Positions 28,406 to 46,878 of a stretch of DNA of 64,000 nt are shown here, one piece after another. The notes beneath the pieces were generated by a model. The model saw only the letters and a list, made by a program, of their open reading frames with translations, was not told where the DNA came from and ran no database searches. Position 1 is the first letter of the stretch. Each line of letters opens with the position of its first letter. Made by a program: the position numbers and the translations under genes. The stretch spans positions 27,216 through 91,215 of the forward strand of contig JAZSKX010000002.1 in NCBI GenBank assembly GCA_045535075.1, read 5' to 3'. The stretch comes from Candidatus Spyradenecus sp. (GTDB lineage Bacteria > Verrucomicrobiota > Verrucomicrobiia > Opitutales > UBA953).

Positions 28406-28702
28406 TTATTCGCCGTCGTCGACGACGCGGGGGACGACGATTTGGTCTTCGCGTGCGGCAGGAGCGTTTTTCAGAAGAGCTTCGACGGGAAGTGTTTCCG
28501 CGGGAACGTCGTCGCGCAAAACATTGTAAACCGGGAACGCGTGCGCGCAGGGCTCAAGCGCGGAGACATCGACAGCGTTGAGTTTTTCGAAAAATCCGAG
28601 AATGGTTTGAAAGTCTCCGGCGAATTTTTGTTTTTCGGTATCGGAAAGTTCGATACGTGCGAGCGCGGAAACGTGTGCGAGATCGATTTGCGAATCGTTC
28701 AT
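28406..28702 (-). CDS. gatC: Asp/Glu-tRNA amidotransferase subunit C
   Basis: HVSALARIEL, NVLRDD, LLKNAP, VVPRVV; upstream of gatA. Confidence 0.93.
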   Translation of the reverse strand: MNDSQIDLAHVSALARIELSDTEKQKFAGDFQTILGFFEKLNAVDVSALEPCAHAFPVYNVLRDDVPAETLPVEALLKNAPAAREDQIVVPRVVDDGE

Positions 28703-28710
28703 AAAGCGTG

Positions 28711-29775: not shown

Positions 29776-29857
29776 AAATTTCCCCTCAGTCTAATCGCAG
29801 TCGCTCAACACCTTCAAATATTAAAAACAACAAAACCGCGAACAAGCCGACAAAAAA

Positions 29858-29887
29858 ACGTTCCCGCAGACTGCTCCGCGGGAACGT
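29858..29887 (-). terminator. Terminator formed by an inverted CGGGAACG pair, downstream of PEP-CTERM gene 2
   Basis: ACGTTCCCGC-N10-GCGGGAACGT preceded by an A-run. Confidence 0.75.
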
Positions 29888-29924
29888 CGGACTAATTATG
29901 AATTAATATATCACTAAAGAAAGA

Positions 29925-30659
29925 TTAGCGACGGCGGCGACGCGAACCGACAAGCGCCAAAGCGCCCAAGCCCGCGAGCAAACCGAACGCAGACGGCTCG
30001 GGAATCGGAGCGGTCGTAGCAGCGAGGCTCGACAGATCCTTCATGTTGGTTTCATTTCCGCCCATATATTCGTTGAAATAATAGGACGTTGCGACAGAAT
30101 CGTTGAAAGTAAGTGCGGAAATACCGGCCTGGTTTGTCTTCAAGCCTCCGGCAGCAACATACGAATTCACAATTGCATTTTTGCTAGCATCCAAAAGCGT
30201 AAATGCAACGGCTGTGCCGGAAGTCGAACCAAACGAATAAACCAATCCGGCGTAAGCGACATTGTCCCAACCGGTTCCTTCCGTGTCCCCGTTAAGATCT
30301 GCGAGATCGGAACTGCCTGTCCAACAGGTGCTACTCCAATTGATATTGTCTCCCCAGCGAGCATACAATCCGGAAGTATTAACTTTTCCACCGGAAGATC
30401 CCCCGTTAACCGTAACGCCGGTAGCAGTCCCTCCGGCATCGTAGCGAACAATATCTGTTCCCCAGCTAGCGGTTACCCCTTTTTCCAGAAGCGCGCGGAG
30501 CTCCGCGACATCAAGCGTCAAAGCGACGGTAAAGCTTCCTCCGAGCGTATTGTAGCTGGTATCTCCCCCGACAGCCTTATCCGCACCGTCCAGCGAGACT
30601 GCATTTGCGAAAGCGGCGCCTGCGGCGAAAAGAGCCGCGAGTGTAATATATTTTTTCAT
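29925..30659 (-). CDS. PEP-CTERM surface protein
   Basis: Signal peptide MKKYITLAALF; C-terminal IPEPSAFGLLAGLGALALVGSRRRRR. Confidence 0.93.
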   Translation of the reverse strand: MKKYITLAALFAAGAAFANAVSLDGADKAVGGDTSYNTLGGSFTVALTLDVAELRALLEKGVTASWGTDIVRYDAGGTATGVTVNGGSSGGKVNTSGLYARWGDNINWSSTCWTGSSDLADLNGDTEGTGWDNVAYAGLVYSFGSTSGTAVAFTLLDASKNAIVNSYVAAGGLKTNQAGISALTFNDSVATSYYFNEYMGGNETNMKDLSSLAATTAPIPEPSAFGLLAGLGALALVGSRRRRR

Positions 30660-30692
30660 AAGTTTCGTGATTGAGATTAAAATGAGGGGTTC

Positions 30693-30720
30693 ATTTTACC
30701 CCCCCCTAAAATGGCGTCAA
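30693..30720 (-). promoter_or_regulatory. Putative sigma70 promoter with a G8 tract in the spacer
   Basis: Minus strand TTGACG-ccattttaGGGGGGGG-TAAAAT (16-bp spacer); homologous to 7044-7071. Confidence 0.6.
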
Positions 30721-30789
30721 GTGCATTTGAAGCGATTTTAGGGGTAATTTTGAAGCAGCACGACGCACTGTAATTTCCGGATACGAAAA

Positions 30790-30817
30790 CCGTTCCCGCG
30801 GAAAACCACGGGAACGG
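30790..30817 (-). terminator. Inverted CGGGAACG-pair hairpin (probable original acnA terminator, now after hsdR)
   Basis: CCGTTCCCGCGG-AAAA-CCACGGGAACGG. Confidence 0.65.
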
Positions 30818-30856
30818 GCAAATAAAGTAGCGCCTCCGCGAACTCTGCGAAAGACA

Positions 30857-33800
30857 CTATTTCCGCGAAAGCATTCGTGAAAATTCGTGTCTATTCGTGG
30901 TTTCGGATTCGGACGCCGCGCAATTTTTATCCCAGGATTTTGCGGAGGACGTATTGGAGAATGCCGCCTTTTTCCCGTAAGGCGCTGAAGCTTCTGAAAC
31001 GATGAGCAATGTTTCTTCGTCCGAATAGCTCACGATACTCTTTTCTTCAAGAACTCCCGAGTTGTTCTCTTCAAAATTTTCGACCTGATCCATAACCTTT
31101 CGGAAAACTTCGGGGCAGTACTGCGGCGGATAGCCGTTTTTGATCAAACAAACTTTAATGTCAAATTTAAGCCGGTCCCGAATAATCTGATTGTTGAGCC
31201 AATCAGAAAATGAAGATTTTGTATCGATAATTTCTTTCACTTTCTTTGCCAGAGACTTACACTTTTCATTAATAGAAACGCCTCCGACAAGTTTGTCTTC
31301 CCCGTACACAAAGTTGTGTCGATCGCGTAAATCCATCAAAATGTCGTAAAATGCTTTTTCCTCAAATGTAAGACCGATTTTTCTAAAGCTCTCACGATCG
31401 GCATTCATATTCTTTAAAATTTGAAGTGCCTGTTCCGTTGCATTCCGAATAATTTCGTTTGCGGTCTGTTCCTGTGTTTCTCCCGCTTCTTCTTCGGAGA
31501 GGTGTTTTCTCCTTTCGTGATATTGCCTGACGGTTTCTTCAAGCATTTCTTGGAATTTCTTCGCCGCCATTTGATTGGTCTTCCCGTATTCCCGAATCTG
31601 TTTGCGAAGCATTTTCACCAGCATTTCAAGTTTCGTGGCAGGCATCTTTACATCCGCCAGCTTTTCAAAAAACTCGGGGCTGAACAAATCTTCCTGCTCG
31701 CCGTCATCAAGAATGCTTTCGACATCATTATATTTCAGCGCTTGTTCCACCATTTCGGAGACGCGACGATTCATCGTATCGGTATCGATATCCGTGTCCG
31801 TTCCGCTCATTTTGCGGACAAATCCGGCAATCGCCATAAAGCACTGCGCCAGGGCGGATTCTTCTTCACCGAGGCCGCCGGACGGCTGACAAATGTCGTA
31901 TGCCGCGCGCATTCTTTTCACGGTTTTCAGAAAATAGGTTTTGAAAGAAACCTTGGAAACTTTCTTCCCGCGATTTGTTTCCGAACTCAGAAACCGCGCG
32001 GAAACAAAGACAAACTCCGCCGCTTTTGCCAAAAGCCTATACCGCTCCGCCGGGTCTCCGTCGGGCATGAGGAACGGACTCAGATCATACTCGTCAAAAA
32101 GGTTTTTGAGGATTTCCAACTCTTCTCTGAAAACTGCCGCCGCCTGTTCCACGTCATCCGAAGACGGGGCAACAGAGGCATCTCCACCATAGAGTTTCAT
32201 TGCTTCCCGCATGTTATCCCGAATGCCGATGTAATCGACAATGAGACCGTAATCCTTGCCCGGAAACTTTCTGTTCACCCGACTGATGGTTTGAATTAAG
32301 AGATGCTTTTTCAGCGGCTTATCGTTGTACAGGTATGTCAGCGCGGGAACGTCAAATCCGGTAATCCACATATCCACCACAATGACGATTCGGAAGTTGG
32401 AGTTTTCCTGCCTAAATGCGGCATCAAGCGCCTCCGAGCGCTCTCCGTTCTTTACTCCGCCAAGGTAGTTATACATCTCTGCGGGATCGTTGCTACCGAC
32501 ACTTGAAACCATCGCCATAAAAGGCATCGGCTTCAGTTCACGCAATTCCTCGTCAGAAACGACGGTTCCGTCCGCCACCTTCCTTTCCGCAAACCATTCG
32601 GGATACTTTTCCTGGAATTTTTTCAGAAGCGTATAGGCAATCGATCTGCCGGAACAAACGATCATAGCTTTTTGCACTCTTCCAGGATCGTTTTCACACG
32701 CAGACACATAATGATCGTGAATGTCAACGGCAAGGCGCTCCAAGCGGGACGGTTCGCCAAGAATGACCTCCATGGAGCTCATCGCACGCTTACTTGCTTC
32801 GATATCGTCTCTCGTCGCCCCGTCATCCGCACACTTCTTATAGTAATTCTCAATCTCCCTGATCTTTGCCTGATCCAACAAAACTTTGGCAATGCGCGGA
32901 TGATATTTGATGGAAACGGTAAGTCCGTCCGCAACCGCCTGATCCATCGTGTAGCGGTCAATTTCGTCCCCGAAAGTCTGATACGTTTCGGCAATCGGCG
33001 TTCCCGTGAACCCGACAAACGTCGCATTGGGCAACGCCTCTTTCAACACTTTCGCGTAGGGCTTGGAAACGACGGCACGCATATTCTCGTCCGCATCTTT
33101 GCTGAACTGAATCTTCTTCGCGTTTTCAATTTGCGTCCGGTGCGCTTCGTCGGAGAAACAGATAATATTTGCCCGGCTGTTAATCAGTCCGATCCTATCG
33201 TCTTCCCGATCACAGAATTTCTGAATCGTGCAAATGTAAAAACCGCCGCTTTCCCGTGCGCCGAGCTCTTCCCGCAACACCTTCCTGTTCGGGACAATGC
33301 AAACCTCGCCCAAATTTAAAAATTCTTTGCTCTTGGTAAAGAGCTTCGCGCCCTGCTTTTGCAATTCATCGCGGTCCACAATCATAACGATGGTGGGCGA
33401 ACCTATCGCGGGAACGTCCGCACAGCGCAGCGCCAATTGCCGGGCAAGAAACGCCATCGTGTAGGTTTTCCCGCACCCCGTAGCGCCGAAGTAAGTCCCG
33501 CCTTTCCCGCTTTTTGAAATCACGGATTTGACGATGCTCTGCTTCAGGAGCCGGGAAGCAAAGAACTGCGGATAGCGGCACACGATTTCCCGCTCGGCGT
33601 AATCGTATTCGCTGTCCTGAAAATAAATATAGTCCCGGAAAATTTCGAGAAAGCGTTCGGGCGCAAACACGCCCCGAATCATCGTCTGCGTTTCCTCAAA
33701 CGGGAGCGTCGAAACCTTGTCGCCGTCGTTCACACGCCGCCAGGCATAGAAATGCTCATAAGGCGTGCGCACCGTTCCCAAGCGCGTTTTCACACCGTCG

Positions 33801-34390
33801 GAAATACACGCCAACGGGCAGTAGTGGAGCAGGTGCGGAATATCTCGCCAATAGCGGACGTTGATTTGCTCCCACGCATCGTAAATCGTCGCCCGCGCAT
33901 CCGCCGGATTTTTCAGCTCAATGACGCACAGCGGTAAACCGTTGACATAGAGAAGCACGTCCGGACGGCGGAGTTCCCGCTGCCCGTTGTTCACATATTC
34001 GACGGGAAGCTGGTTGACGACGCGAAAGATATTGTTTCCCGGGCACTCAAAATCAATAAGCGCAACCATTCGCGCCAAGCCGCTTTGCGGCGTAAACTGC
34101 ACGCCGTTTACCATCTGCACATACAGTTTGTGCAAGGTCGCGAACTCACTTTCCGCTCCCGCGAGGCGAACGGAATTCATGACCTCGCGGATCTCTTCCG
34201 AACGCAAATCCGGATTTTCTTTACTCAAAAACTGCTCCAAGTCGTCCTCATACAAAACGTCCGTTTTCAGGTTCCGCACGACGCTCCCGCCGGGCAGATA
34301 ATGCCAACCCGCTTCCTCTAAAAACGAGATAAACGCATCCTCAAATTCCGATTCGCAGAACCGCCCGTTGTATTCTTTCAGCTTCGCCAT
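30857..34390 (-). CDS. hsdR: Type I restriction endonuclease subunit R
   Basis: RPDVLLYVNGLPLCVIELKN, GATGCGKT, DEAHR, GFTGTP, VDMWITGFDVP, QTISRVNR; start at ATG 34390. Confidence 0.95.
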   Translation of the reverse strand: MAKLKEYNGRFCESEFEDAFISFLEEAGWHYLPGGSVVRNLKTDVLYEDDLEQFLSKENPDLRSEEIREVMNSVRLAGAESEFATLHKLYVQMVNGVQFTPQSGLARMVALIDFECPGNNIFRVVNQLPVEYVNNGQRELRRPDVLLYVNGLPLCVIELKNPADARATIYDAWEQINVRYWRDIPHLLHYCPLACISDGVKTRLGTVRTPYEHFYAWRRVNDGDKVSTLPFEETQTMIRGVFAPERFLEIFRDYIYFQDSEYDYAEREIVCRYPQFFASRLLKQSIVKSVISKSGKGGTYFGATGCGKTYTMAFLARQLALRCADVPAIGSPTIVMIVDRDELQKQGAKLFTKSKEFLNLGEVCIVPNRKVLREELGARESGGFYICTIQKFCDREDDRIGLINSRANIICFSDEAHRTQIENAKKIQFSKDADENMRAVVSKPYAKVLKEALPNATFVGFTGTPIAETYQTFGDEIDRYTMDQAVADGLTVSIKYHPRIAKVLLDQAKIREIENYYKKCADDGATRDDIEASKRAMSSMEVILGEPSRLERLAVDIHDHYVSACENDPGRVQKAMIVCSGRSIAYTLLKKFQEKYPEWFAERKVADGTVVSDEELRELKPMPFMAMVSSVGSNDPAEMYNYLGGVKNGERSEALDAAFRQENSNFRIVIVVDMWITGFDVPALTYLYNDKPLKKHLLIQTISRVNRKFPGKDYGLIVDYIGIRDNMREAMKLYGGDASVAPSSDDVEQAAAVFREELEILKNLFDEYDLSPFLMPDGDPAERYRLLAKAAEFVFVSARFLSSETNRGKKVSKVSFKTYFLKTVKRMRAAYDICQPSGGLGEEESALAQCFMAIAGFVRKMSGTDTDIDTDTMNRRVSEMVEQALKYNDVESILDDGEQEDLFSPEFFEKLADVKMPATKLEMLVKMLRKQIREYGKTNQMAAKKFQEMLEETVRQYHERRKHLSEEEAGETQEQTANEIIRNATEQALQILKNMNADRESFRKIGLTFEEKAFYDILMDLRDRHNFVYGEDKLVGGVSINEKCKSLAKKVKEIIDTKSSFSDWLNNQIIRDRLKFDIKVCLIKNGYPPQYCPEVFRKVMDQVENFEENNSGVLEEKSIVSYSDEETLLIVSEASAPYGKKAAFSNTSSAKSWDKNCAASESETTNRHEFSRMLSRK
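30927..30968 (-). repeat. att-like copy of the last 14 codons (including stop) of acnA
   Basis: Minus strand reads [13 protein letters not shown]; identical to 42865-42906 except for a synonymous GGA/GGC. Confidence 0.9.
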
Positions 34391-34572
34391 TGCCCGCCTC
34401 ACTTCCCGCCGGATTAATCAACTACCGAGATTCCCGCCACGGACAATCTTCCCGCCGAGAGACGTTTTTCAGATGTGGACAAGCTTGCTTCCCGGCAGAT
34501 TTGCAGAGAGAAAAATTAAGGGATTCGGTTAGTGTGTTAGTCATAGAGGTTAAGAGATCTGAAAGCAACCAG

Positions 34573-34760
34573 CGTGGGTATTCCTAAAATTGAAACAACC
34601 ACTTTCAAGCCAATTCGTCTTCTTCAAAAATGTTCTTAAGATGTCGCTGGCGTGTTCATGCCGAACAATTCAGCCAAATAGACTTATCTTTTACAAGGGC
34701 GTTTAGCGCAATGTCTTCTTTCGACGATTTGTACAGAAGAAAATTGAATGATTTAGCTAG
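34573..34760 (-). pseudogene. Decayed 5' fragment of a RhuM-family gene
   Basis: Frameshifted pieces FNFLLYKSSKEDIALNALVKDKSIWL / AELFGMNTPA / HLKNIFEEDELA / VVVSILGIPT match the RhuM N-terminal pattern as I recall it. Confidence 0.7.
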
Positions 34761-34776
34761 ATTATTTTGTTCTACA

Positions 34777-36900
34777 TTAACAAGCTATCCCATCATAAAA
34801 ATAATCTAAAATGTAATGCTCAAAAGGATGTAAGCTTCCCTCAAGTTGTTGTTTTAATCTCTCTTTCCCAATTTTTTTTAACTGCAACAACACCTCGTGC
34901 AGAGGAATTTCATTGTCTTCCAAATTTATTATCCCCGCATTTTGAATTTTCTTACTCACCATCCTAGGGAGTCCATATTCTTCTAACTCATAAACGTTTC
35001 TGGGAAGAAACGCATGTGATGCTTTAGCGAGAAATGATGATATATTAATGTTGTCGTCAGTAATTTTGTTATGAATATTGCTTATATCTTTGAGGATTTC
35101 TGCGAATTTATAGGTCACCGCTCTCTCAAATTTGAAGAACTTGTCAATACCGATATCATAGTCCTCCAGCACTGCTAACATATCGGGAATTGTACGAGTC
35201 CAGTTTTCAGACAAACAAACAACAAATTCAACAAAACTACGATTTTCATCATATTGGCTTTTCGTAAAATCATAATCCACTAATTCGCCCTTAACAGCTG
35301 ACAACACTGTATATAAAACGCCCTTCCAGTCCTCCGGATTCTCCGAATTTAAATAGGCCAAACACTTCCACTTAGTACAATCCTCTTTTATGCCTACCGC
35401 AATTTTTCGTATAAAAGCATAACTCCCACAACGCAAATTTTCATTTATCAAACTCCTATAATTTTCTTCCCCAAGAAGTTTGCTCATAGCTTGTTTACTG
35501 CTATTAATCGAGGCAACTTGATCCTGAGATATTTTATCATAATCAGATTCACAAACATTACAAAGAACCTCCTCCGAAAGGTCTATATCAAGTTGTACTT
35601 CCGATTCCGTCGGGGGAGGCTCTAGTAGATAAATTTGCCCAACAAAGTGTTTAAACATCCTCCCTGCTCGTCCTATTATATTTTTATATGTAAAGACATC
35701 GAGTTTGGCATTACTCCCGCTACGCCGATTGCGCCAAACAATAACATTTTCAGCAGAAGTATTCACGCCTTCAATTATCGAAGATGTTGAAACAATAGCA
35801 TCTAATCCATCCTTTTCTTCAAATAAGCGCACCTGTATCTGGCTCAACGCACGATGAAGTCGCCCGTTATGAATACCAATGCCTTTTTTTATCAAACTTG
35901 TTAATTTCCAGTTTGTATCATAATTAAGGCTAAGCCAATCTGCGAAACTTGAAAGACGGTTGTTTTCTTTAGAATCCAATCTTTCATTAATCGCATTCGT
36001 TACTTTTTCTATCTGAGGGAAAGAGGCGGCATATATTAGTGACTTCGAAGATCTCGGTTTTAAAATCTCACACAATCTTTCACTTTTTTTACTCTCATCT
36101 CGTCCTATTCTCACATACTCGTCATGTTTGTTTAAAAAAACGGTATTAAAGTCTAGTTCACGCACAAACAGCATATCATGCGTGAATAAATTGGGAGAAA
36201 TATTTGAGATATTGGGAGCAAGATAATACTTCTGTACGGCCTTATCCTTGATTTTTAATATTGCATTTAAAAGACTTACAGACCGGTCTTCATATTTACT
36301 ACTTGCCTTATAAAATTCATCTATAATAAGGATATCAATTTTTTCAATCTTATCGACATACCCAAACACTCTTTCTTGTGGAAAAATAAAAATGTTTTTA
36401 TCTCCAAGCTCGACATCGCCTGTTGTAATAATCCTGTATTCGCTGGAAAATTTTTTATATATACGCCTCCTTGTTTCATCTGCTAACGCAATTGTTGGAA
36501 CGATAATTACAACATTTCGAGGCTTCTTGATTGCAATAAACGCATCTATTACAAAACTTTTTCCAAAACTTGTTGGAGCACTGACTGCGATATTCTTACC
36601 GGACAAAAGCTCTTTTAGTAAAAACGATTGCTCTCTATGTAATGTCTGCTTTTCTCTGTTTCCTGTATCTACCTTAAAAGCTTCATAGACAAACTTATCC
36701 TCCCACCCGGCGGTATCTTCTTGGATATACGGGTATAATCCTGTTTTTCGAATCAAATGATTAACAAGCGGAGAATAAGGAAGCTGCATTCTTTCATGAT
36801 CGTCCAATAATTTTATCAACTTATTCCGCGCCTCTTCCTCGTTCCCGTTGTCTAGCAAGCAATTAATCTCTCTACAATGACTAAAAACAGCTTCCTCCAT
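34777..36900 (-). CDS. hamB: Hachiman HamB-like Ski2/DEAD-box helicase
   Basis: SAPTSFGKS, IIDEFYK, GIHNG, TSSIIEGVNT, NIIGRAGR; directly downstream of the DUF1837-like gene; AT-rich. Confidence 0.85.
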   Translation of the reverse strand: MEEAVFSHCREINCLLDNGNEEEARNKLIKLLDDHERMQLPYSPLVNHLIRKTGLYPYIQEDTAGWEDKFVYEAFKVDTGNREKQTLHREQSFLLKELLSGKNIAVSAPTSFGKSFVIDAFIAIKKPRNVVIIVPTIALADETRRRIYKKFSSEYRIITTGDVELGDKNIFIFPQERVFGYVDKIEKIDILIIDEFYKASSKYEDRSVSLLNAILKIKDKAVQKYYLAPNISNISPNLFTHDMLFVRELDFNTVFLNKHDEYVRIGRDESKKSERLCEILKPRSSKSLIYAASFPQIEKVTNAINERLDSKENNRLSSFADWLSLNYDTNWKLTSLIKKGIGIHNGRLHRALSQIQVRLFEEKDGLDAIVSTSSIIEGVNTSAENVIVWRNRRSGSNAKLDVFTYKNIIGRAGRMFKHFVGQIYLLEPPPTESEVQLDIDLSEEVLCNVCESDYDKISQDQVASINSSKQAMSKLLGEENYRSLINENLRCGSYAFIRKIAVGIKEDCTKWKCLAYLNSENPEDWKGVLYTVLSAVKGELVDYDFTKSQYDENRSFVEFVVCLSENWTRTIPDMLAVLEDYDIGIDKFFKFERAVTYKFAEILKDISNIHNKITDDNINISSFLAKASHAFLPRNVYELEEYGLPRMVSKKIQNAGIINLEDNEIPLHEVLLQLKKIGKERLKQQLEGSLHPFEHYILDYFYDGIAC

Positions 36901-36902
36901 AA

Positions 36903-37820
36903 TTATCTCCCCCTATAAAAGTTAACATTCGAGACAAAATCCTTCACGATCCTTTCTTTATCAGGGATAGGGAATAGAATCAGATGAAACTTTATATCTG
37001 CATAACGAGAAACAGAACCTAACTCACGAATTTGCTTACTAAAATACTTAGACGCCTCTGAAATATGAAATTTTTTAATGTCGTTTCTATACTGAGAAGA
37101 CATCATTTCTCTATTTTTGGTTATTTTACATTCGTGCAATAGAAGTATTGGAATATGCAATCTTGGTTTGAAATCATCGATTGATTCTTGATTGTCTAAA
37201 AGAGACCTTATTCTTTTCAAGAGGGCTTCCTTGTTTCCCATGAGCCTATCCATATCGCGTGCTCCCGTAATAAGCCTATTTTCTCTTTTAAGTTTTTCTG
37301 TGCCCAATGTCTCTTTTATAGAGGCAATTGCAGCTCCCATAGCAGGACTTAACTCCTTATAAAATTTTGCCTCCCCAAACCAAATTGAAAAATCATCTTC
37401 ACCTTCAAGGACAATATGCACGCTATCAACACCTTTTGCATTATCCTGAGAGTTTTGCTTATAAAAAATCTTGGGGACCACTGGTAACCCATTATAGTGA
37501 TGCCTCATTACTCCATATAATAGAATTTCGGCTAATTCACTCCCCGCACCAACATCTTCCCCTCTGGATGTAAATCGCAAATTCTTAGCCGCCTCTTTTA
37601 ACGATGATTGATATTGTCCCGCTAATTTTTCTCTTTCTTCGTGAGACAATGCAGCTTCGATTATATTATCCCAAATAAAGTTTTGAAACTTTTCAAACCT
37701 CCATTGCCTATCTTCAAAATCATTTAATAAACTAAGAACCTTTTCATTCCCTCTTGATTCAAAAGAAGGCTCAAGACTCGACATCAACTCATCATTTATC
37801 AATACCTCGAATGTTGCCAT
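36903..37820 (-). CDS. hamA: Hachiman HamA-like (DUF1837) nuclease
   Basis: ELAEILLY, PKIFYK..DNAKGVDSVH, IWFGEAKFY, FHLILFP; paired with the helicase. Confidence 0.85.
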   Translation of the reverse strand: MATFEVLINDELMSSLEPSFESRGNEKVLSLLNDFEDRQWRFEKFQNFIWDNIIEAALSHEEREKLAGQYQSSLKEAAKNLRFTSRGEDVGAGSELAEILLYGVMRHHYNGLPVVPKIFYKQNSQDNAKGVDSVHIVLEGEDDFSIWFGEAKFYKELSPAMGAAIASIKETLGTEKLKRENRLITGARDMDRLMGNKEALLKRIRSLLDNQESIDDFKPRLHIPILLLHECKITKNREMMSSQYRNDIKKFHISEASKYFSKQIRELGSVSRYADIKFHLILFPIPDKERIVKDFVSNVNFYRGR

Positions 37821-37836
37821 ACGTTATACCTCTTTC

Positions 37837-38955
37837 TTAGTTAGATTCCAAACTGCCCCGAATCAGAATCGGGCAGATGTTTTTGATTTGTGATTTTAGT
37901 TGTTCGTTGATGCGTTTTCGTTCGGTGTAAACGTTGTAAATATCGACGATGGATTTTTGGACGTCCTTGTCCGGAATCGGGAGTTGTGTTTCGTAAAACC
38001 GATCTAAATCAAGATTAGACCGGATACTCGAATCACTCATAAACCACCCACGACGGTCGCTTTCTCTTCGGGAAAACCACATCAAAATGTATTCTTCGAG
38101 AACAGTGTCGTTCTTGCATTCAAACACCGTGTAGGCCGGAGAAATAATGATGGGCATTCCCGCCTTATTCAAAGCGATTCTGATACATTCATCCCGTCCC
38201 GTTTGCATTCCGGAAAAAGCAAACTGATTTTTTTCGACGAGTTTATACCTTGTTAAATCTACTCCGTTGGTGTCTGCGACAGACGGCATGAACTGTTTTG
38301 CAATATTTATCCCATGCGCAATTGTGATTTCGCCGCTCTCATTACGAATATCAACTTCTTTCAGTAATTCGCGGACAGGTGTTGTTTCTGATTTATGTTT
38401 AATTTCGTCAATAAAGGCATCGATCCCAAGTTTCAAATCTTCCAAGCCGCGTTCGTAGCATTGCTGATTGGCGACCATCGCTTTGTAGATATCGACGTAT
38501 TTTTGCTGCGTGAAAAGAGGCGGAAGATCGATTTCCATTTCGCACAATGCATTCCATGTGAAAACTTCTGTAGAGCTTCCCCAAGAACGGAAACACGCTT
38601 CTCGATCCCATTCCACGCGGTTGAAGTGCAAAAACAAATATTCAGGGGAAACAACCTCTTTCACTTCTTTTTTTACTCTAAAACCAATGTTGTTCCAAGA
38701 AATGATGAAGCTTTTTCCGGTACTATTGTATCCAAAACCGATATGCTTTCCATGAGTACGGGGATTAAAAACAAATTCGGTAGGATGGATAACTAAGAAT
38801 TTTTCCAAATCAGCAGTTGATACGTTAGCTTTTGTTGGAATGATTTGCTTTGTTATGGTCATTCCTTTCACATCGTTCACTCCGAACGAATTATTTTTGT
38901 TCGTTTCGGTTGTAAGTTCTATTAGCTGACCAAGTTTATATCTACTCAATGCCAT
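37837..38955 (-). CDS. hsdS: Type I RM specificity subunit S
   Basis: Two TRD-like halves each followed by a conserved helix (LPPLFTQQKYVDIY / LPIPDKDVQKSIVDIY); overlaps the hsdM stop; start at ATG 38955. Confidence 0.85.
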   Translation of the reverse strand: MALSRYKLGQLIELTTETNKNNSFGVNDVKGMTITKQIIPTKANVSTADLEKFLVIHPTEFVFNPRTHGKHIGFGYNSTGKSFIISWNNIGFRVKKEVKEVVSPEYLFLHFNRVEWDREACFRSWGSSTEVFTWNALCEMEIDLPPLFTQQKYVDIYKAMVANQQCYERGLEDLKLGIDAFIDEIKHKSETTPVRELLKEVDIRNESGEITIAHGINIAKQFMPSVADTNGVDLTRYKLVEKNQFAFSGMQTGRDECIRIALNKAGMPIIISPAYTVFECKNDTVLEEYILMWFSRRESDRRGWFMSDSSIRSNLDLDRFYETQLPIPDKDVQKSIVDIYNVYTERKRINEQLKSQIKNICPILIRGSLESN

Positions 38956-40555
38956 ATCCGATTCCTTTGAATGCGCCTGCGAGCATTTTTTGAGACTGTT
39001 TTTCTTGAGCCATGAGTTCCCGCATTTCTTTTTGGATGCGAGCCATTTCTGCGGGAAAATCGATTTCCAAGTCGTGGTCGATGAACTCGATGTATTTGCT
39101 GGGAACGAGGCTCCAGCCTTGCGCCTCGATTTCCCTGATGCCGACGCTGCGATAGAGCTCGGGAACGGCATACGCGTTCCCGTCCGTTCCCGCGCTTTGC
39201 CAAGTGTGGTAGATGTCGGCGGCTCGTCGGATTTGGGCGGCATCTAAAAGCACTTTTTTCTTTCCTTCGTTTTTCACGGGATTATCCGTCCAAGTGCGCA
39301 GGTCCATAAAGAGAATTTCGCCTTCGCGGTTGCGCAGACTGCGCCCGTGGTATTTCCCGCCTTTTTTGTTTTGGTTCAAAATCCAGAGGGTAACGCTGAT
39401 GTCCGTTGTGATAAAGAGTTCCCGCGGGAGGATAATGATGGCTTCCACTTTGTCGTTTTGAATCAGCTTTTTTCGGATTTCCACGGTGTCGCTGTCGCCG
39501 AGCGCACCGTTCGCAAGCAAGAATCCGGCAACGCCGTCCAACGGCTTCAAGTGGGAAAGCATGTGCAAAATCCAAGCATAGTTGGCATTGCTTTCGGGCG
39601 GCGTGGCGTAGTTTGCCCAGCGAGAATCGTTTTTCAGGTTTTCATCATACCAGCCTTTGAGATTAAAAGGCGGGTTTGCCATGATGTAGTTGAAGTAGAG
39701 CCCTTTGTGCAGATCGTGCGTAAAGGTGGAATCGCTTTCGCCGCCGAGGTTGTGGCTGATCCCGCGCAGGGCGAGGTTCATTTTAGCGAGGCGATAAGTC
39801 GCCGCCTCTTTTTCCTGCCCGTAAACATTGATGCGGCTGATGTCGCCGCGCTTTTCTCTGATGAGGTCGGTGCTTTGGACAAACATACCGCCCGATCCGC
39901 AACAGGGATCGTAAAGCGTGCCGTCAAAAGGCTCAATCATGGAGGCGATGAGCTGGACGACATCGTGCGGCGTGTAATATTCGCCCTCTTCTTTGGTCGC
40001 GTTGACGGCAAATTCTTTGAGGAAGTATTCGTAAACCCGCCCGATAAGGTCTTTTTCTTCGCCGAATGCCTTGTGGCTGATTTTGTTGACCTCGTCGACG
40101 ATTTGTTTGATGTCGTTGGCGGCAAGGTTGCGCGTAGTGAACGTGCCTTCCACGAAGCAACCTTTCAGCTGGGCACTGCCGGTCGCGATGCTGTGCAGAG
40201 CGGTATCGAGGGCGACGTTCAGTTTGGGTGCGGGAGTGTTAATAATCGTGGACCAACGCGCCTCTGCGGGAAGATTATAGGTCCCGTCCGTAAAAGTGGC
40301 ATCGTCGAAAAATGCCGCGAAGATTTCTTCATCGTCCGGGTCAAGACCTTGAGCGATTAGGTCTTCGCGTAGCTTCTTGATCCCATCTTCAAATTTTTCG
40401 CCGATAAAGCGCAAGAACACGAGCGTCAGCATCATGTCGCGCTTTTCAAAAAACGATCCGGAATTGCGGGCTTTGCGCAGGATATCCCGACACTTGAACA
40501 GAATCGCGTCTAAATTGATTTTATCGTCAGTCTTTTCCTTCGTTGCCTTTGCCAT
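38942..40555 (-). CDS. hsdM: Type I RM N6-adenine methyltransferase subunit M
   Basis: GEYYTP, YDPCCGSGGM, YGQE, MANPPFN. Confidence 0.95.
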   Translation of the reverse strand: MAKATKEKTDDKINLDAILFKCRDILRKARNSGSFFEKRDMMLTLVFLRFIGEKFEDGIKKLREDLIAQGLDPDDEEIFAAFFDDATFTDGTYNLPAEARWSTIINTPAPKLNVALDTALHSIATGSAQLKGCFVEGTFTTRNLAANDIKQIVDEVNKISHKAFGEEKDLIGRVYEYFLKEFAVNATKEEGEYYTPHDVVQLIASMIEPFDGTLYDPCCGSGGMFVQSTDLIREKRGDISRINVYGQEKEAATYRLAKMNLALRGISHNLGGESDSTFTHDLHKGLYFNYIMANPPFNLKGWYDENLKNDSRWANYATPPESNANYAWILHMLSHLKPLDGVAGFLLANGALGDSDTVEIRKKLIQNDKVEAIIILPRELFITTDISVTLWILNQNKKGGKYHGRSLRNREGEILFMDLRTWTDNPVKNEGKKKVLLDAAQIRRAADIYHTWQSAGTDGNAYAVPELYRSVGIREIEAQGWSLVPSKYIEFIDHDLEIDFPAEMARIQKEMRELMAQEKQSQKMLAGAFKGIGYGIE

Positions 40556-40832
40556 ATTGTGCCCGCCTTCAGACGTATTGTGTTTGGGTAGGATAAGTCT
40601 CCGTTTTGCGTTAAGAAGATTGAAGTGGTTTCACTTTGCTAAAATGACAACAAATTCCGCGCGGGAACGCAAAAGCGAACTTGCAGAAAACAGTCCCGGC
40701 AAAAGCAAAAAATCCTCAAAAAGCGCTCTCCGAATCACAGTAAGAAAAAAATATAAAAAACAACAAAAAGTAAGTTTTTTATTTTAAAAATAGAAAAATA
40801 TAAGTATTTTATATAAAAAATAAGGATTTTCT

Positions 40833-42332
40833 ATGACGCCGATCGGATACGCTTTTTTAATCAAACACTTTGACCTGAAAGTTCTGAGCCCCTACAAAAC
40901 GTCGTATTTGACATCGAAGCAGGTTCGAATGAAAGAATGCTTTGCCTCCGGCGAAATAGAATACTTCCCTTCACGCTTCAAGCTCGAAGAGAAATGGCAA
41001 GATCACTTGCGCTTCGCGATAAAGCACGAAGGAATTAACTTAAATATTTTAAAAGCTCTCTTTGAAAAACTTGATGAATCAGAGCTTAAAGCGCTCATTT
41101 GCGAACAACGGGTTAGCGTCATTTTGCGAAGAATATGGTTTTTCTATGAATTTTTAACCGGACGGCGTTTGGAAATTCCGGCTCTGAAAACCGGTGTATA
41201 CGATTATGCGCTTCCTCCGGAAGACTATTTTACAATAGACAAAGAACACGCTACACGAGCTCCACGCCAGCGCCTTTTTTGCAATCTCCCCGGCAATGCG
41301 GCGTTTTGCCCGATTGTTCATTTAACAAAAAAAATCAAATCTGCATTAAATACGGATTTCGGAGCGAAAATCTCTGCTGTTCTTTCAAAATATCCGAACG
41401 AGCTGATTTATAGGGCGAACGCTTTTCTGTATTTACGGGAAACGAAATCGTCTTTCGCGATCGAGCAACAAACGCCCTCTCAACAGCGGACAACAGTTTT
41501 CATGGAAGTTCTCAAACAAGCGGGAACAAAAGAACTGAATACACAGGCTCTCGTTCAATTGCAGAATTGTATCGTTGATGCACGGTATGCGGAATCCGGC
41601 TTTCGTCAAGATCAAGTCTACGTCGGGCAAACTTTAGCCCCGGGGCACGAATTAGTGCACTTTATCGGAGTTAAGCCTAACGACCTAAACTCTTTCATGG
41701 AGGCATTTTTTGAAATCCTGAAAAGGCTCACAGCCTCGAGCTGTAATCCGGTCATTACGGCTGCCGTTCTTTCATTTGCCTTCGTTTTCATCCACCCGTT
41801 CGATGACGGGAACGGACGGCTCCATCGTTATTTGATGCATCATATTTTAGCGATGATGAAATTTTCTCCGGAAAATCTTATTTTTCCGGTATCCGCCGTT
41901 CTGTATAAGAATCCGACATCTTACGATCGGATGCTCGAGAGCTTCTCCAAACGTTTGATGCCACTGATAAATTACGAGTTGGATACCCTCGGAGTAATGA
42001 CTGTAGAAAACGAAACGGCAGACTTTTATCGTTACATCAATTATACGGAAATAGTTGAGCTTTTCTTTGAAATCATAGAGAAAACCCTGGAAACAGAACT
42101 CGTTCCCGAACTGGATTATCTGAAGTCGTGGGAACAAGCCAGAACTCAAATGCGCAATATCGTCGATATGCCGGAAAAAAAAATAAGGCTATTTATTACT
42201 TTTGTTCAGCAAAATAATGGTTCCTTTCCCAAAAATCGCCGAAAAATGTTTGAAGAGCTGAGTGATGCGGAAATAAGTTCCCTTACCCGAGTTATCAACA
42301 AAAACATTTTATCCCGAAACTCCAAAAAGTAA
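40833..42332 (+). CDS. Fic-domain protein
   Basis: Fic motif HPFDDGNGRLHR; also LRETKSSFAIE. Confidence 0.92.
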   Translation: MTPIGYAFLIKHFDLKVLSPYKTSYLTSKQVRMKECFASGEIEYFPSRFKLEEKWQDHLRFAIKHEGINLNILKALFEKLDESELKALICEQRVSVILRRIWFFYEFLTGRRLEIPALKTGVYDYALPPEDYFTIDKEHATRAPRQRLFCNLPGNAAFCPIVHLTKKIKSALNTDFGAKISAVLSKYPNELIYRANAFLYLRETKSSFAIEQQTPSQQRTTVFMEVLKQAGTKELNTQALVQLQNCIVDARYAESGFRQDQVYVGQTLAPGHELVHFIGVKPNDLNSFMEAFFEILKRLTASSCNPVITAAVLSFAFVFIHPFDDGNGRLHRYLMHHILAMMKFSPENLIFPVSAVLYKNPTSYDRMLESFSKRLMPLINYELDTLGVMTVENETADFYRYINYTEIVELFFEIIEKTLETELVPELDYLKSWEQARTQMRNIVDMPEKKIRLFITFVQQNNGSFPKNRRKMFEELSDAEISSLTRVINKNILSRNSKK

Positions 42333-42816
42333 GTTTTTTACAACGAAAAACATAAAAAGTAAGTTTTTTGTTTAAAAAGTAAGGATTTTCTCTCGTTATC
42401 TTCCGAAAAGTAACAAAACCTGTTTTAAATGGCTTAGAAAAGGCTTTTGGCGTTGCTCAAAACTTATCTTTCTCAAAGAACCGGCAAGCAAAACATACGA
42501 GTTACTACTCCGGATTGAAAAGCGCAGCAAGAACGCGTGTCGAAAGTCGTTGTTTCATTGCGCCGTGAATGCGTCAGGGAGCAACGGTATCGTTCCCGCG
42601 GCGCAGTTTTGTCAGTTTGCTGTCCCCAAGCTCCGCTCGCGTTGCTCGCTTCGCATGGGGTTATTATTGTTAATCCTCTTCGAGGCTTTTGAATTTCCTA
42701 TAAAACAAAAAAAGGGACAGCCGAGACGGCTGTCCTCCTTTGGAAGAAATTTTCTTTCTCCTTGTTCTTTTGCGATTAAGGTTTCCGAAAGAAGTGCCAA
42801 TTCCCTTAATGCCCCA

Positions 42817-42849
42817 AAAAACTCCCCTCGCAATTTGGGGAGAGTTTTT
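42817..42849 (-). terminator. Island-supplied terminator after acnA
   Basis: AAAAACTCCCC...GGGGAGAGTTTTT hairpin immediately after the acnA stop. Confidence 0.55.
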
Positions 42850-42864
42850 CGGGAAAGTTTGGGC

Positions 42865-45516
42865 TTAGCCCAGGATTTTGCGGAGGACGTATTGGAGAAT
42901 GCCGCCGTTGGCGAGGTAATGCGATTCCGCGAGCGTGTCGATGCGGCAAAGCAAGGTCGTCTTGGCGACTTCGCCGTTGGCGCGGCGAATCACGAGCGCG
43001 ACGTTTTGCTTCGGCTTCACGGGATTTTCCAAGCCCTCGATGTCGAAAGTTTCCGTGCCGTCGAGCCCGAGCGATTCCGCGCTTTCGCCGTTTGTAAATT
43101 CGAGCGGGAGCACGCCCATGCCAATCAGGTTCGAGCGGTGGATGCGTTCAAAGCTCTGCGCGACGACTGCGCGCACGCCGAGAAGCGCGGCGCCCTTCGC
43201 CGCCCAGTCGCGGGAAGAGCCCATGCCGTAATCGACTCCGGCGAAGACGATGAGCGGCGTTCCCGCCTTTTTGTAGGCTTCGCTGGCTTCGAAAATCGTA
43301 GTCAGCGTTCCCGCGGGCTGAAGTTTGGTAAAGCCGCCTTCTTTGCCGTCCGCCATCTTGTTTTTGATGCGCACATTGGCAAAGGTGCCGCGCACCATGA
43401 TGCGGTCGTTCCCGCGACGCGAGCCGTAGGTATTGAATTTTTCGCGGGGAATGCCGCGTTCGGTGAGGTATTTCCCGGCGGGCGTTTCGGGCGCGAAGGC
43501 GCCGGCGGGAGAAATGTGGTCGGTTGTCACGGAGTCGCCGAGGATGGCGAGCGGGCGCATTCCCGAGAGTTTCGCCGGCGGCGGGAGCGTCATGCCGAAG
43601 CCGTCAAAATACGGCGGGAACTGGACGTAGGTTGAGTCGTCGCGCCAGCCGAAGAGCGCGCCCGTGGTTGCGGGAACGGTTTTCCATTCTGCCGTTGCAT
43701 CATCGAACGAAGCGTAGCGCTTGGCGAACATTTCGGGTTTGATGCCGGCGGCGATGAGCGCATCGATTTCCGCCTGTTTCGGCCAAATGTCTTTGAGGTA
43801 AACGGGTTGCCCGTTCGTTCCCGTGCCGAGCGGTTCGTTTTCCAAATCGATATCGATGCGACCCGCGAGCGCGAAGGCGACGACGAGCGGCGGCGACATG
43901 AGGAAATTTGATTTGATGAGCGGATGAATGCGCGCTTCGAAATTGCGGTTGCCGGAAAGCACACTCGCCGTAATGAGTTTGCCGTCGCGAATCGCGGTCT
44001 CGATTTCGGGCGCGAGCGGACCGGAATTGCCGATACAGGTCGCGCAGCCGTAACCGACGAGATTGAAGCCGAGTTTGTCCAAATACGGCGTCAAGCCCGC
44101 CGCGTTTAAATAATCCGTAACGACGCGGGAACCCGGCGCGAGCGAGGTTTTCACATACGCGGGAACGCGCAAACCTTTTTCCACGGCGCGTTTCGCGACC
44201 AAGCCGGCGGCGATGAGCACGCTCGGATTCGACGTGTTCGTGCAGCTCGTAATCGCGGCGATGACGACGGAGCCGTCGCGCAGCGTTCCCGCCTCGGTTG
44301 CCGCGCCTTTCGTTTCTTCGCGGAATTTGTCGAACGCGTTTTTCACGTTTCCGAGTTCGATGCGATCCTGCGGGCGTTTCGGCCCGGCAACGGAACGCGT
44401 AATCGTCGAAAGATCGAGCTCGATGACTTTCGTGTAGTTGATTTCGCCCGCTTTCGGCATGCCGAAAAGCCCCTGCGCTTGGAGATAATCGCGGACGACG
44501 GCGACTTTCTTTTCGTCGCGCCCGGTGAGGCGTAGGTAGTCGAGCGTTTTTTCGTCAACCGGGAAAAAGCCCATCGTCGCGCCGTATTCCGGAGCCATGT
44601 TGGCAACGGTCGCGCGATCGGCGAGCGAGAGCGTTGCCGCGCCTTCGCCGAAAAATTCGACAAATTTGCCGACGACCTTCGCCGCGCGGAGAATTTCCGT
44701 CACGCGGAGCGCAAGATCCGTGGCGAGCACGCCTTCCGGGAGCGTTCCCGTGAGGTGCACGCCGATAACTTCCGGCGTCTGGAAGCAAACCGGCTGTCCG
44801 AGCATTCCCGCTTCCGCCTCGATGCCGCCGACGCCCCAGCCGACGACGCCGATGCCATTGACCATTGTCGTGTGCGAGTCCGTTCCGACGACGGAATCCG
44901 GGTAGAAAACCGTTCCCGCGGGCGTTTCTTTTTCAAAAACAACACGCGCGAGATATTCCAAATTCACTTGGTGGCAAATCCCGACGGCGGGCGGCACGAC
45001 GGAAAACGTTTTGAACGCGCCCTGCCCCCACTTGAGCAATTCGTAGCGCTCCGTGTTGCGGGAAAAATCCTTTTCGATATTTTTGCGAAATGCATCCGGC
45101 GTTCCCGCGTAGTCGATTTGCACGGAGTGGTCGACGACCATATCCATCGGCACGAGCGGCTCGATGAGCGCGGGATCGCGTCCGAGCTTGGCGACGGCAT
45201 CGCGCATGGCGGCGAGATCGACGAGGAGCGCAACGCCGGTTAAATCCTGCAAAAGCACGCGCGCGACCGTGAACGGAATTTCCGTGTCGGCGGGCTTTGC
45301 GGCGTTCCAGTTGGCAAGCGCGCGAACGTCGTTTTCCGTAATCAGCGTGCCGTCGCAGTTGCGAAGCACGCTTTCAAGGACGACGCGGAGGCAGACGGGC
45401 ATTTTGGAAACTTGCCCGATTCCCGCCTGTTCAAGCGCGGGAACGCTGTAGTAAAAACCTTTTTTGCCGGCTGCCGGGCAGTTAAATTCGCGAAGCGTCT
45501 GGAAAGGATTGTTCAT
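42865..45516 (-). CDS. acnA: Aconitate hydratase AcnA
   Basis: [55 protein letters not shown]; start at ATG 45516. Confidence 0.97.
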
Positions 45517-45977
45517 AATTGGGGGGCAATCATAGAAAAACACAGGCGTTCCCGCGAGAAATTTCCACGGAAACGCATTCTCAAAAAAAGAACCGCGAAC
45601 AAACACGAATTTTCTCAAATGATCTTCATTTGCGGAATTTGCGAAAACGAGCAGTTCTGAAATCTTTTTTATCTTTCTCCCTATTGAATCAATAGATTAT
45701 TTAGCACAATACTGCTTCCCGCTATCCGCCAACTTTTTCAACTCATGAACACACATTTTTCGCCCTCCCCGCCGCACAAGTAACCGTTCCCACGGGAACA
45801 CAAAACAGCGCAGTCGGATTTTCTTTCCGTTTATCGCGGATTTTTACATGATTTCGGCTCTGCCGCGTTCGGAAACCGCAAAGAAAATCGTTGCGCTTAT
45901 GTTTTCTCCCGCCGGGCAGGAAATCTTCGAGAAAACCGGATACTTTTCCCAGCCTTAAGGCTGTTATAGCGAAACAA

Positions 45978-46014
45978 AAAACCGTTCCCGCGAAACATTC
46001 ACGGGAACGGTTTT
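45978..46014 (-). terminator. Terminator formed by an inverted CGGGAACG pair after trxA
   Basis: AAAACCGTTCCCGCGAA-ACA-TTCACGGGAACGGTTTT. Confidence 0.8.
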
Positions 46015-46038
46015 GCCTTACGAATTTCGTAACAGCGT

Positions 46039-46356
46039 TTATTTCAACGCATTCAGCAAGGTGGCTTTTTGTTGAAGCCCGACAAATTTTTGAGCAACTT
46101 CGCCGTTTTTGAAAATCAGAATCGTCGGAATATTCTGAATTCCGAAGCGAGCCGCGATTTCCATGGAATCGTCGATATTGACCTTGCAGATTTTGGCGTC
46201 GCCGCCGACTTCGTCTGCAATCTGGTCGATTGTCGGACCGAGAGCTTTGCACGGTCCGCACCAGGGAGCCCAAAAATCAACGAGTACGGGAACGTCCGCC
46301 TTGATCGCGTCGTCAAACGTATCGTTGTCTAATTCATTTACGTAGGGTGATGCCAT
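46039..46356 (-). CDS. trxA: Thioredoxin
   Basis: VDFWAPWCGPCK. Confidence 0.96.
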   Translation of the reverse strand: MASPYVNELDNDTFDDAIKADVPVLVDFWAPWCGPCKALGPTIDQIADEVGGDAKICKVNIDDSMEIAARFGIQNIPTILIFKNGEVAQKFVGLQQKATLLNALK

Positions 46357-46383
46357 ATAATTTAGAGCGTTATCGTCGCAAAA

Positions 46384-46878
46384 TTATTTGTATTCGCGCG
46401 CCATGAATTCGAGCAGGAGCAAGATGACTCCGGCGGCGGCGGCGAGGAAGAAAAGCACATCGACGACGGCGGCGAATTTGCCGACTTCCGTCGAAGCTTC
46501 GGGAATCGCGGGAGCTTCAATCGGAGCGCGAGCCGGGCGAACCGGAACCGGCGGCTTAGCAACGGCGACACGCGGACGAGCGGGAGGAGGAGGAGGAAGC
46601 GGTGAGGACATAGTCGGTTTGTTTGGAATGTTTGTTTTGGGAGGAAGTTTTGCCGTCGGTTTCGCGCTCGGCGTTTGCTTGGTTGCACCGATATATTCGA
46701 TGAGCACCAACGTCGCGCCTGAACGGTTTGCGGGAACGGGCTCTTTTGCGGGAGCCGGTTTCGGTGCCGGGGCAACTGCTTTCGGCGCGAGTTTGACACG
46801 CGGGGCGAGTTTAACGGCAGGTTTTTCAGGCGAATTTCCGAGGGGCATAACGTTGAAAGTTTCCGTAATCTTAGTCAT
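46384..46878 (-). CDS. Proline-rich protein with a C-terminal TM anchor
   Basis: Pro/Ala/Lys-rich region then hydrophobic VLFFLAAAAGVILLLL; co-oriented with trxA. Confidence 0.55.
   Translation of the reverse strand: MTKITETFNVMPLGNSPEKPAVKLAPRVKLAPKAVAPAPKPAPAKEPVPANRSGATLVLIEYIGATKQTPSAKPTAKLPPKTNIPNKPTMSSPLPPPPPARPRVAVAKPPVPVRPARAPIEAPAIPEASTEVGKFAAVVDVLFFLAAAAGVILLLLEFMAREYK

Follow-up and report, generated by a model that had tools for sequence, protein, structure and literature searches.

We analysed a window of 64,000 nucleotides (the whole stretch considered here, positions 27,216 to 91,215 of contig JAZSKX010000002.1) from the genome of Candidatus Spyradenecus sp., a member of the Opitutales within the Verrucomicrobiota. 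In this window, the gene for aconitate hydratase A (acnA; 42865-45618, minus strand) is followed by an interval of defence genes, at the far end of which the last 42 nt of acnA occur a second time. The source genome, a 1.95-Mb assembly, is denoted G000, its contig that carries the window C9, the genus relatives G001-G018, and four public sequencing runs X1, X2, X6, and X19. The acnA open reading frame (ORF) comprises 917 codons, and AcnA models are matched over their full length; it opens at TTG, but the model match begins at residue ~38-53, and the likely start is therefore an ATG near 45516.

The repeated segment, TTA(T/G)CCCAGG...GCCGCC, is found at 30927-30968 and 42865-42906. The two copies are identical at 41 of 42 positions, including 38 nt without interruption, and at 43 of 45 positions when the comparison is stretched to 30971 and 42909. 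Their sole mismatch (T at 30930 versus G at 42868) is synonymous, yielding GGC or GGA for Gly, such that both copies encode ...RKILG followed by a stop. The right copy is the true 3' end of acnA on the minus strand (its last 13 codons and stop), whereas the left copy, on the same strand, is a 42-nt stub of that end (13 codons and TAA) that is one synonymous base removed from it. The boundary of the repeat coincides exactly with the acnA stop codon. The 38 exact nt are the longest exact direct repeat of the window, compared with 14-18 nt in 20 block shuffles, and a uniform model predicts ~1e-14 such pairs by chance. The 38-mer occurs exactly twice in the 1.95 Mb of G000, and a reversed control pattern does not occur. 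Only one other isolated pair of 38-nt repeats was detected genome-wide, and this corresponded to paralogous genes; no second case like the acnA stub was identified. One base of acnA that is private to G000 (the position equivalent to 42898) is also present in the stub, which indicates that the stub derives from an allele of this lineage rather than a distant one.

The segment between the copies comprises a type I restriction-modification (R-M) operon (hsdM, hsdS, and hsdR), a Hachiman gene pair between hsdS and hsdR, and, upstream, a Fic-family gene of the PDC-S24 type. All of these genes are on the minus strand except the Fic gene. In type I R-M systems, methylation of a bipartite site is the task of HsdM2S, and together with HsdR the complex translocates along unmodified DNA and cuts it. 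Pfam, PADLOC, and NCBIfam models predict a complete set here, with HsdR, HsdM, and HsdS together and the domains of HsdR whole to residue 1112-1114. The hsdM gene (38942-40555) encodes a methyltransferase of 537 residues that is recognised by models from all three collections. The hsdS ORF spans 37837-39243, but its model match starts at residue 101, which places the likely start near 38943, where hsdM stops. The hsdR gene (30857-34402) comprises 1181 codons, and residues 1-1143 of its product are colinear with the 1144-residue HsdR of relatives. A second homologue of type I hsdR is located at 130711-131298 of contig C2 of G000, with 33% identity over the C-terminal part and one in-frame TGA.

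Hachiman systems consist of a helicase, HamB, that restrains the nuclease HamA until aberrant DNA is sensed. As is typical of such systems, the window encodes a DUF1837 protein and a helicase side by side, each matching its PADLOC model over the full length: hamA (36903-37820, minus strand, 305 residues; PF08878, 4e-55; PADLOC HamA, 1.6e-129) and hamB (34777-36900, minus strand, 707 residues; PADLOC HamB, 1.4e-224), which are separated by 2 nt. Between the hamB stop and the hsdR start is a degenerate 5' remnant of a RhuM-family gene (34575-34766, minus strand) that retains the first ~75 codons, interrupted by stops and a frameshift. An intact RhuM gene occupies the same position in G011 and G013, and the remnant is displaced earlier cargo.

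The Fic-domain protein (40833-42332, plus strand, 499 residues) matches the PADLOC candidate family PDC-S24 over residues 2-492 of 499 (PDLC04966, 2.1e-163), with the Fic domain at residues 235-339; PDC-S24 is itself only a candidate defence family. Fic proteins usually AMPylate their targets. The gene is flanked by two direct repeats of 75 nt on the plus strand (40758-40832 and 42317-42391) that are 77% identical to one another and built of AAAAAGTAAG(T/G) units ~30 nt apart. Only one copy of this repeat, and no Fic gene, is present in each of G007, G010, and G011; the equivalent position is without a Fic gene in G007 and G010 and is occupied by an AAA_14-DUF4143 gene in G011, G013, and G001. 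The Fic gene therefore appears to have entered or left through recombination in a repeat array upstream of hsdM. The fraction of G and C (GC) is 0.33-0.43 in the stretch from hamB to hsdS, 0.48-0.55 in hsdR and hsdM, and ~0.6 in acnA.

A Pfam scan of the seven large ORFs from hsdR to acnA inclusive revealed no recombinase domain. Tyrosine recombinases (PF00589) gave four hits in the genome, none of them on C9, and serine recombinases (PF00239) gave none genome-wide; two of the tyrosine recombinase hits, on contigs C14 and C15, are not Xer-like. No tRNA gene is present in 28-48 kb that could have served as a target, and the sole Rfam hit is far below the gathering score. The first-pass annotation of the window, made from its letters alone, had described a repeat encoding the AcnA C-terminus and stop around a defence island that is devoid of a recombinase ORF, and these descriptive points are borne out.

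The left junction

The 3' ends of hsdR from G000, G007, G010, G011, G013, and G001 were aligned together with acnA to resolve the junction at the left copy. The G000 gene is colinear with those of G011, G013, and G001 up to ...GCGCCTTACGG, which lies inside the last codon. Thereafter, the three relatives have one more codon and TAG, and after 22 nt a NERD-ankyrin gene begins with ATG, whereas G000 continues with at most 6 bases that can be assigned to neither hsdR nor acnA (an AAAAAG-type filler at 30969-30974, with no strand assigned) and then with the acnA 42-mer. The G007 and G010 genomes have a third kind of hsdR end, which is followed by a dispersed terminator, a gene for Endonuclease_NS, and tyrS. 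In G000, tyrS is on contig C12 and an Endonuclease_NS orthologue of the G007/G010 type is missing. Near the joint, hsdR and acnA have the tetranucleotide ACGG in common, although the joint makes no clean use of it.

HsdR of G000 has consequently lost one residue and its stop and has gained 38 residues, which represent read-through of the junction, of the stub in another frame, and of the stub flank. The earlier description of an interval bracketed by a duplicated acnA end is thus accurate, with one correction: the left copy does not stand alone, given that the hsdR ORF runs through it. An order-wide search with the HsdR C-terminus matched 9 of 201 genomes, and the last ~27 residues had no alignment beyond the close clade.

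Beyond the stub, the order is stop, AAA, 25 nt, and a motif of three CACGAAT units with 10-nt spacing (30873-30899, minus strand), which begins 28 nt past the stub stop. In G016, which lacks the island, acnA ends in GGATAAAAA and is followed after ~50 nt by the same motif in the same orientation, as a CACGGAT variant. Similarity between the two flanks is confined to the AAA and the 31-nt motif; local alignment of the motif scored 42, compared with a maximum of 24 in 200 shuffles. The predicted terminator at 30790 was confirmed as a hairpin (30817-30790, minus strand) of 12 pairs, 9 of them G-C, and is now positioned downstream of the hsdR read-through stop. Both the motif and the hairpin belong to families that are dispersed across the genus.

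A strict search found the CACGAAT motif only once in G000. BLAST with a 267-nt query that carries it returned 20-44 matches in each of several congeners (G007, G016, G004, and G018), mostly to the motif itself. The motif is frequently near PEP-CTERM genes, and it may be a regulator-binding or promoter element.

The acnA neighbourhood across the genus

We compared ~18 kb downstream of acnA in nine congeners (G016, G007, G010, G011, G013, G001, G003, G018, and G004). The identity of acnA to that of G000 is 96-97% in G016, G007, and G010, 90% in G011 and G017, and 85-86% in G013, G001, G003, G018, G004, and G006. The R-M operon adjoins acnA in five of the nine (G007, G010, G011, G013, and G001), where identity to the window is 88-97.6% in the hsdR and hsdM blocks, and is absent from this position in G016, G003, G018, and G004. 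The acnA-proximal junction (GCCCAAACTTTCCCG..., a small hairpin, and a T-run) is common to G000, G007, G010, G013, and G001, with a variant in G011 and G017; six further genus members, compared over only 300 nt downstream of acnA, each differ. By contrast with this retained frame, the cargo between hsdS and hsdR varies among congeners and includes a kinase, an MBL-fold protein, RhuM with an AAA_13 or SMC-like protein, and SLFN/AlbA_2. A single HamA query detected a homolog in just one of the 19 genus genomes.

The hsdR genes of these relatives encode 1144-1150 residues and end at a stop of their own; downstream of them is either the NERD-ankyrin gene or Endonuclease_NS and tyrS. A genome-wide count of acnA ends with up to three mismatches returned two copies in G000 and one each in G007, G010, G011, G016, and G017, with no match in the other 13 genus genomes, and no second acnA end within 10 substitutions was found in the nine congener loci. 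Since the operon is beside acnA in relatives that have a single acnA end, placement of the R-M genes predates the left junction of G000. The left junction itself is, from these comparisons, peculiar to the G000 lineage.

These observations bear directly on the proposal of the first-pass annotation that the pair is the target duplication of a tyrosine-integrase-type element. Islands and prophages that carry an integrase restore the 3' end of the gene that they target, as is established for tRNA genes, icd, and guaA. An equivalent history for acnA would require a tyrosine integrase that was once carried or borrowed, a phage-type attachment (attP) site that held the last 42 bp of acnA, and a later deletion that took away the integrase end as far as the stop of hsdR. 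A direct repeat of a gene 3' end that terminates at the stop and leaves the protein unchanged is the classical signature of such elements, and the foreign, low-GC cargo between the copies, the island-free acnA of G016, which ends like the left copy, and the two recombinases on C14 and C15 are all in keeping with it. However, no recombinase is encoded in the interval or on the contig, and the same block is at acnA in five relatives without a second copy, with housekeeping-type neighbours after hsdR, such that this model needs several independent losses of the left site. Moreover, the last codon of a cargo gene abuts the left copy, which leaves no non-coding room for an attachment arm; the flank next to acnA, which has a terminator of its own, shows 85-98% conservation between species, like ordinary chromosome; and no excision product was seen among the joints listed for four runs. 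We consequently consider an integrative element very unlikely at this locus, and the claim of a target duplication is not supported by the comparison with relatives. Our literature search did not find acnA or aconitate hydratase as a described integration target.

A comparison with empty sites in related genomes, which had been suggested as a check, gave a divided answer. An island-free allele does exist in G016, the acnA of which is 97% identical to that of G000; however, only the first ~80 nt resemble the left flank and the flank further out is not syntenic with the window. Synteny is in any case uninformative about an empty site, since the left-flank genes from gatA to the DUF481 gene are on other contigs in all five relatives. 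Aligned to G013, the window breaks up into a patchwork of 1-6 kb blocks, and rearrangement is heavy throughout the genus. The DUF481 gene of G013 has a homologue of 47428-49148 as its neighbour, an adjacency that suggests a larger rearrangement. On the other side of acnA, a stretch of ~160 nt (45792-45954) is 84-90% conserved in five relatives, where it is ~1-1.6 kb further from acnA; this indicates that, upstream of acnA, a piece the size of a gene is absent from G000. Neither a tRNA nor an Rfam family was detected in the stretch.

Strain variation and the origin of the stub

Part of 30500-31500 was identified by one search in 20 public runs, which came from 12 studies that sampled animal gut or faeces, and contigs of X1, X2, X6, and X19 were compared with the window over 28500-46500. 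In X1, a 70.5-kb contig is unbroken over 28500-34403 (121 differences) and continues over 38930-42654, while a second contig covers 42633-45635 and 45777-46500. The X19 contig covers 30881-31727, and the X2 contigs end inside both repeat copies, as is expected for a repeat. In the X6 contig, 29887 is joined to 30820 by 82 other letters, after which the contig proceeds through the stub into hsdR. The PEP-CTERM gene and terminator (29887-30820) are thereby replaced in this contig, which constitutes a strain-level insertion or deletion beside the stub.

The left junction is thus crossed by contigs of X1, X6, and X19 and the right junction by a contig of X1. The identity is 98%, and strain differences are present elsewhere. 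Given that these runs come from different studies and that the joint has no shared sequence of k-mer length that could mislead an assembler, an artefact of assembly or binning, which the first-pass annotation had named as a way in which its reading could fail, is scarcely credible. All that can be said in its favour is that the relatives are also metagenome-assembled and that identity at the locus forms a mosaic across species. Contigs of Joint Genome Institute (JGI) metagenomes matched neither the boundary of left flank and repeat nor a degenerate form of the 38-mer, and are uninformative about strains.

The cargo of these strains differs from that of G000. In X1 and X6, ~2.3 kb stands where the window has 3.45 kb separating hsdR from hsdS, and contigs of all four runs leave the Hachiman stretch almost uncovered. 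The two target-recognition domains of hsdS (37959-38427 and 38512-38930) are unrelated in X1 and X6 to those of the window yet similar in length, with the central and terminal conserved parts retained; this domain replacement has the appearance of typical specificity swapping. Since the junction is present in strains with different cargo, and in strains with or without the PEP-CTERM gene, it predates the current cargo. Collectively, these data demonstrate that the left junction is genuine, common to several strains, and older than the present cargo.

The interpretation that we prefer, with a confidence slightly better than even, is that a single recombination event, between an acnA allele with the island and one without it, left the stub as its scar. 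The R-M operon would be a long-standing neighbour of acnA in this Opitutales genus and a landing pad for other defence genes. The left copy, rather than an attachment site, would be the remains of a second acnA allele of the island-free type, in the order acnA stop, AAA, CACGAAT motif, and terminator. One event in the lineage of the species would have joined an allele with acnA, the R-M genes, and hsdR to this island-free allele, with homology in or beyond acnA anchoring one side and with the incoming DNA end, at the last codon of hsdR, joined on the other side 42 bp before the resident acnA stop. Two routes, indistinguishable here, could have led to this outcome, namely homology-facilitated illegitimate recombination (HFIR) or integration of a circularised fragment by a single crossover within the 42-bp homology. 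Turnover of cargo came after formation of the scar; Hachiman was found in only 1 of 19 genus genomes. What the data show is the structure of the junction, that relatives lack it, that several strains have it, and that cargo later turned over; the direction of the event (import) and its enzymology are what we infer.

Several observations bear on such an event. The donor type, in which hsdR is followed by NERD-ankyrin, is present in G011, G013, and G001, and the recipient type is approximated by G016, although neither was found within the species. The acnA side of the insert is continuous and mosaic, whereas on the hsdR side the sequence breaks off abruptly within the last codon. The RhuM remnant and the repeats that flank the Fic gene are further scars of sloppy cassette exchange in the operon.

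An alternative is a rearrangement in situ that involved no import, wherein template switching, or duplication and subsequent deletion, mended a break at the hsdR end and copied the acnA end of the same chromosome, 12 kb away, into the joint. The copies differ at only one base and share the lineage-private base, a short filler is present at the joint, and rearrangements are numerous in the genus, with the adjacency of hsdR, Endonuclease_NS, and tyrS broken in G000 itself; each of these would be in keeping with such a repair. Nevertheless, nothing in a templated patch would make it end precisely at a stop codon or place it before a flank that resembles that of island-free G016, and the genome has no other isolated repeat of this kind. 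Together, the stop-codon boundary, the G016-like flank, and the private base fit the remains of a full acnA allele better than a randomly copied patch, and we regard repair in situ as unlikely, though deserving of some weight.

Other points count against the recombination of two alleles. The exact recipient arrangement, that is a full acnA followed by the sequence from 30926 leftwards, was not found in any strain or relative, and the flank similarity to G016 amounts to 3 bases plus a dispersed motif. The joint is without a clean microhomology of 3-10 bp, with up to 6 bases unassigned, and HFIR as described in PMC3240628 usually deletes recipient DNA rather than duplicating it. The lineage-private base in both copies fits duplication in situ or gene conversion equally well. 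Left-flank genes are on other contigs in 5 of 5 relatives, in a genus that is heavily rearranged. Lastly, natural competence is not demonstrated, and all genomes used are metagenome-assembled.

It is also conceivable, although we consider it decidedly unlikely, that the 42-bp pair is a working recombination site and that the R-M/Hachiman block is an integrase-less cassette that is captured at, and can be precisely lost from, the acnA end by short-homology recombination. If so, acnA would be a conserved anchor that moves defence cargo, together with its own allele, across species in gut Opitutales. Among the 15 of 31 joints listed for the four runs, none was an empty-site or circle joint and none linked 30927-30968 with 42865-42906; contigs drop rare variants, however, and this result is therefore no evidence against excision.

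Known systems and exchange between species

Scar formation through recombination of two alleles, the interpretation favoured above, has precedents among described processes. HFIR combines one homologous end with one illegitimate end, the latter typically with 3-10 bp of microhomology, and a single crossover of a circular molecule duplicates the homologous segment on either side of the insert (PMC3240628). The acnA locus, as interpreted above, would resemble both in having a homology anchor on one side and an arbitrary incoming end on the other. However, the published duplications are 109-950 bp in length, while that of acnA is 42 bp with at most 6 unassigned bases at the joint. Displacement of effector-immunity modules belonging to type VI secretion systems (T6SS) is described as leaving orphan genes and effector 3' ends (PMC5361080). 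On the favoured interpretation, as with those modules, a conserved gene would provide the anchor, with the old 3' end displaced downstream by the incoming module and a stub left behind; unlike in the modules described there, a core metabolic gene would be the anchor for a defence operon, and one stub rather than an array is present.

Defence genes embedded in type I R-M operons are also known, for example from a survey of embedded genes cited in PMC11411939 and from TgvAB in VPI-2 of Vibrio cholerae (PMC11411939), where, as in the window, defence genes are inside the operon between hsdM/hsdS and hsdR and on the same strand. The embedded cargo in G000 differs in that it is a predicted Hachiman system, recognised from its genes, and in that cargo at this position varies by congener and strain while the R-M frame stays. 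Relative to usual Hachiman systems, the pair is atypical in being embedded in an R-M operon, in its low GC (0.33-0.39 versus 0.5-0.6), and in being the only copy found among 19 genus genomes.

The locus adds an example to kinds already known, pairing a defence hotspot next to a core gene with a probable scar that mimics a pair of attachment sites. The evidence does not establish acnA as an integration target, and no new class of mechanism is opened. If the stub is a scar as proposed, a clean gene-restoring repeat around a defence island can arise without an integrase, and programs that call islands or attachment sites from flanking repeats will mislabel such loci. In this uncultured gut lineage of Verrucomicrobiota, a type I R-M frame is retained while embedded defence cargo is swapped between strains and species.

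Identity to G007 and G010 is 95-97.6% over the block that extends from 30975 to ~45795. In comparison, most genes tested in the 40 kb of window flanks are 66-83% identical to their counterparts in G016, G007, G010, G011, and G013, where they are on scattered contigs. The acnA gene of G000 is a fine mosaic in which runs of the G016 type alternate with runs of the G007/G010 type (76 informative sites). The high identity of the block and the mosaic structure of acnA together suggest that the locus recombines across species, and recombination around defence hotspots could explain why acnA is far more similar across species than most genes of the window.

A gene for DNA-processing protein A (dprA) is located at 53757-54902, 8 kb from acnA; its presence is compatible with DNA uptake and recombination but is no proof of competence. 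Elsewhere in the window, argH (24589-26022) is 98% identical to G016 and 96% identical to G007, and gatA (26417-27877) is 98% identical to G007, whereas the methyltransferase and NUDIX genes adjacent to them are just 74-79% identical. The excess identity of argH and gatA indicates that exchange between species is not confined to the acnA locus, and core genes appear to be swapped between species in patches.

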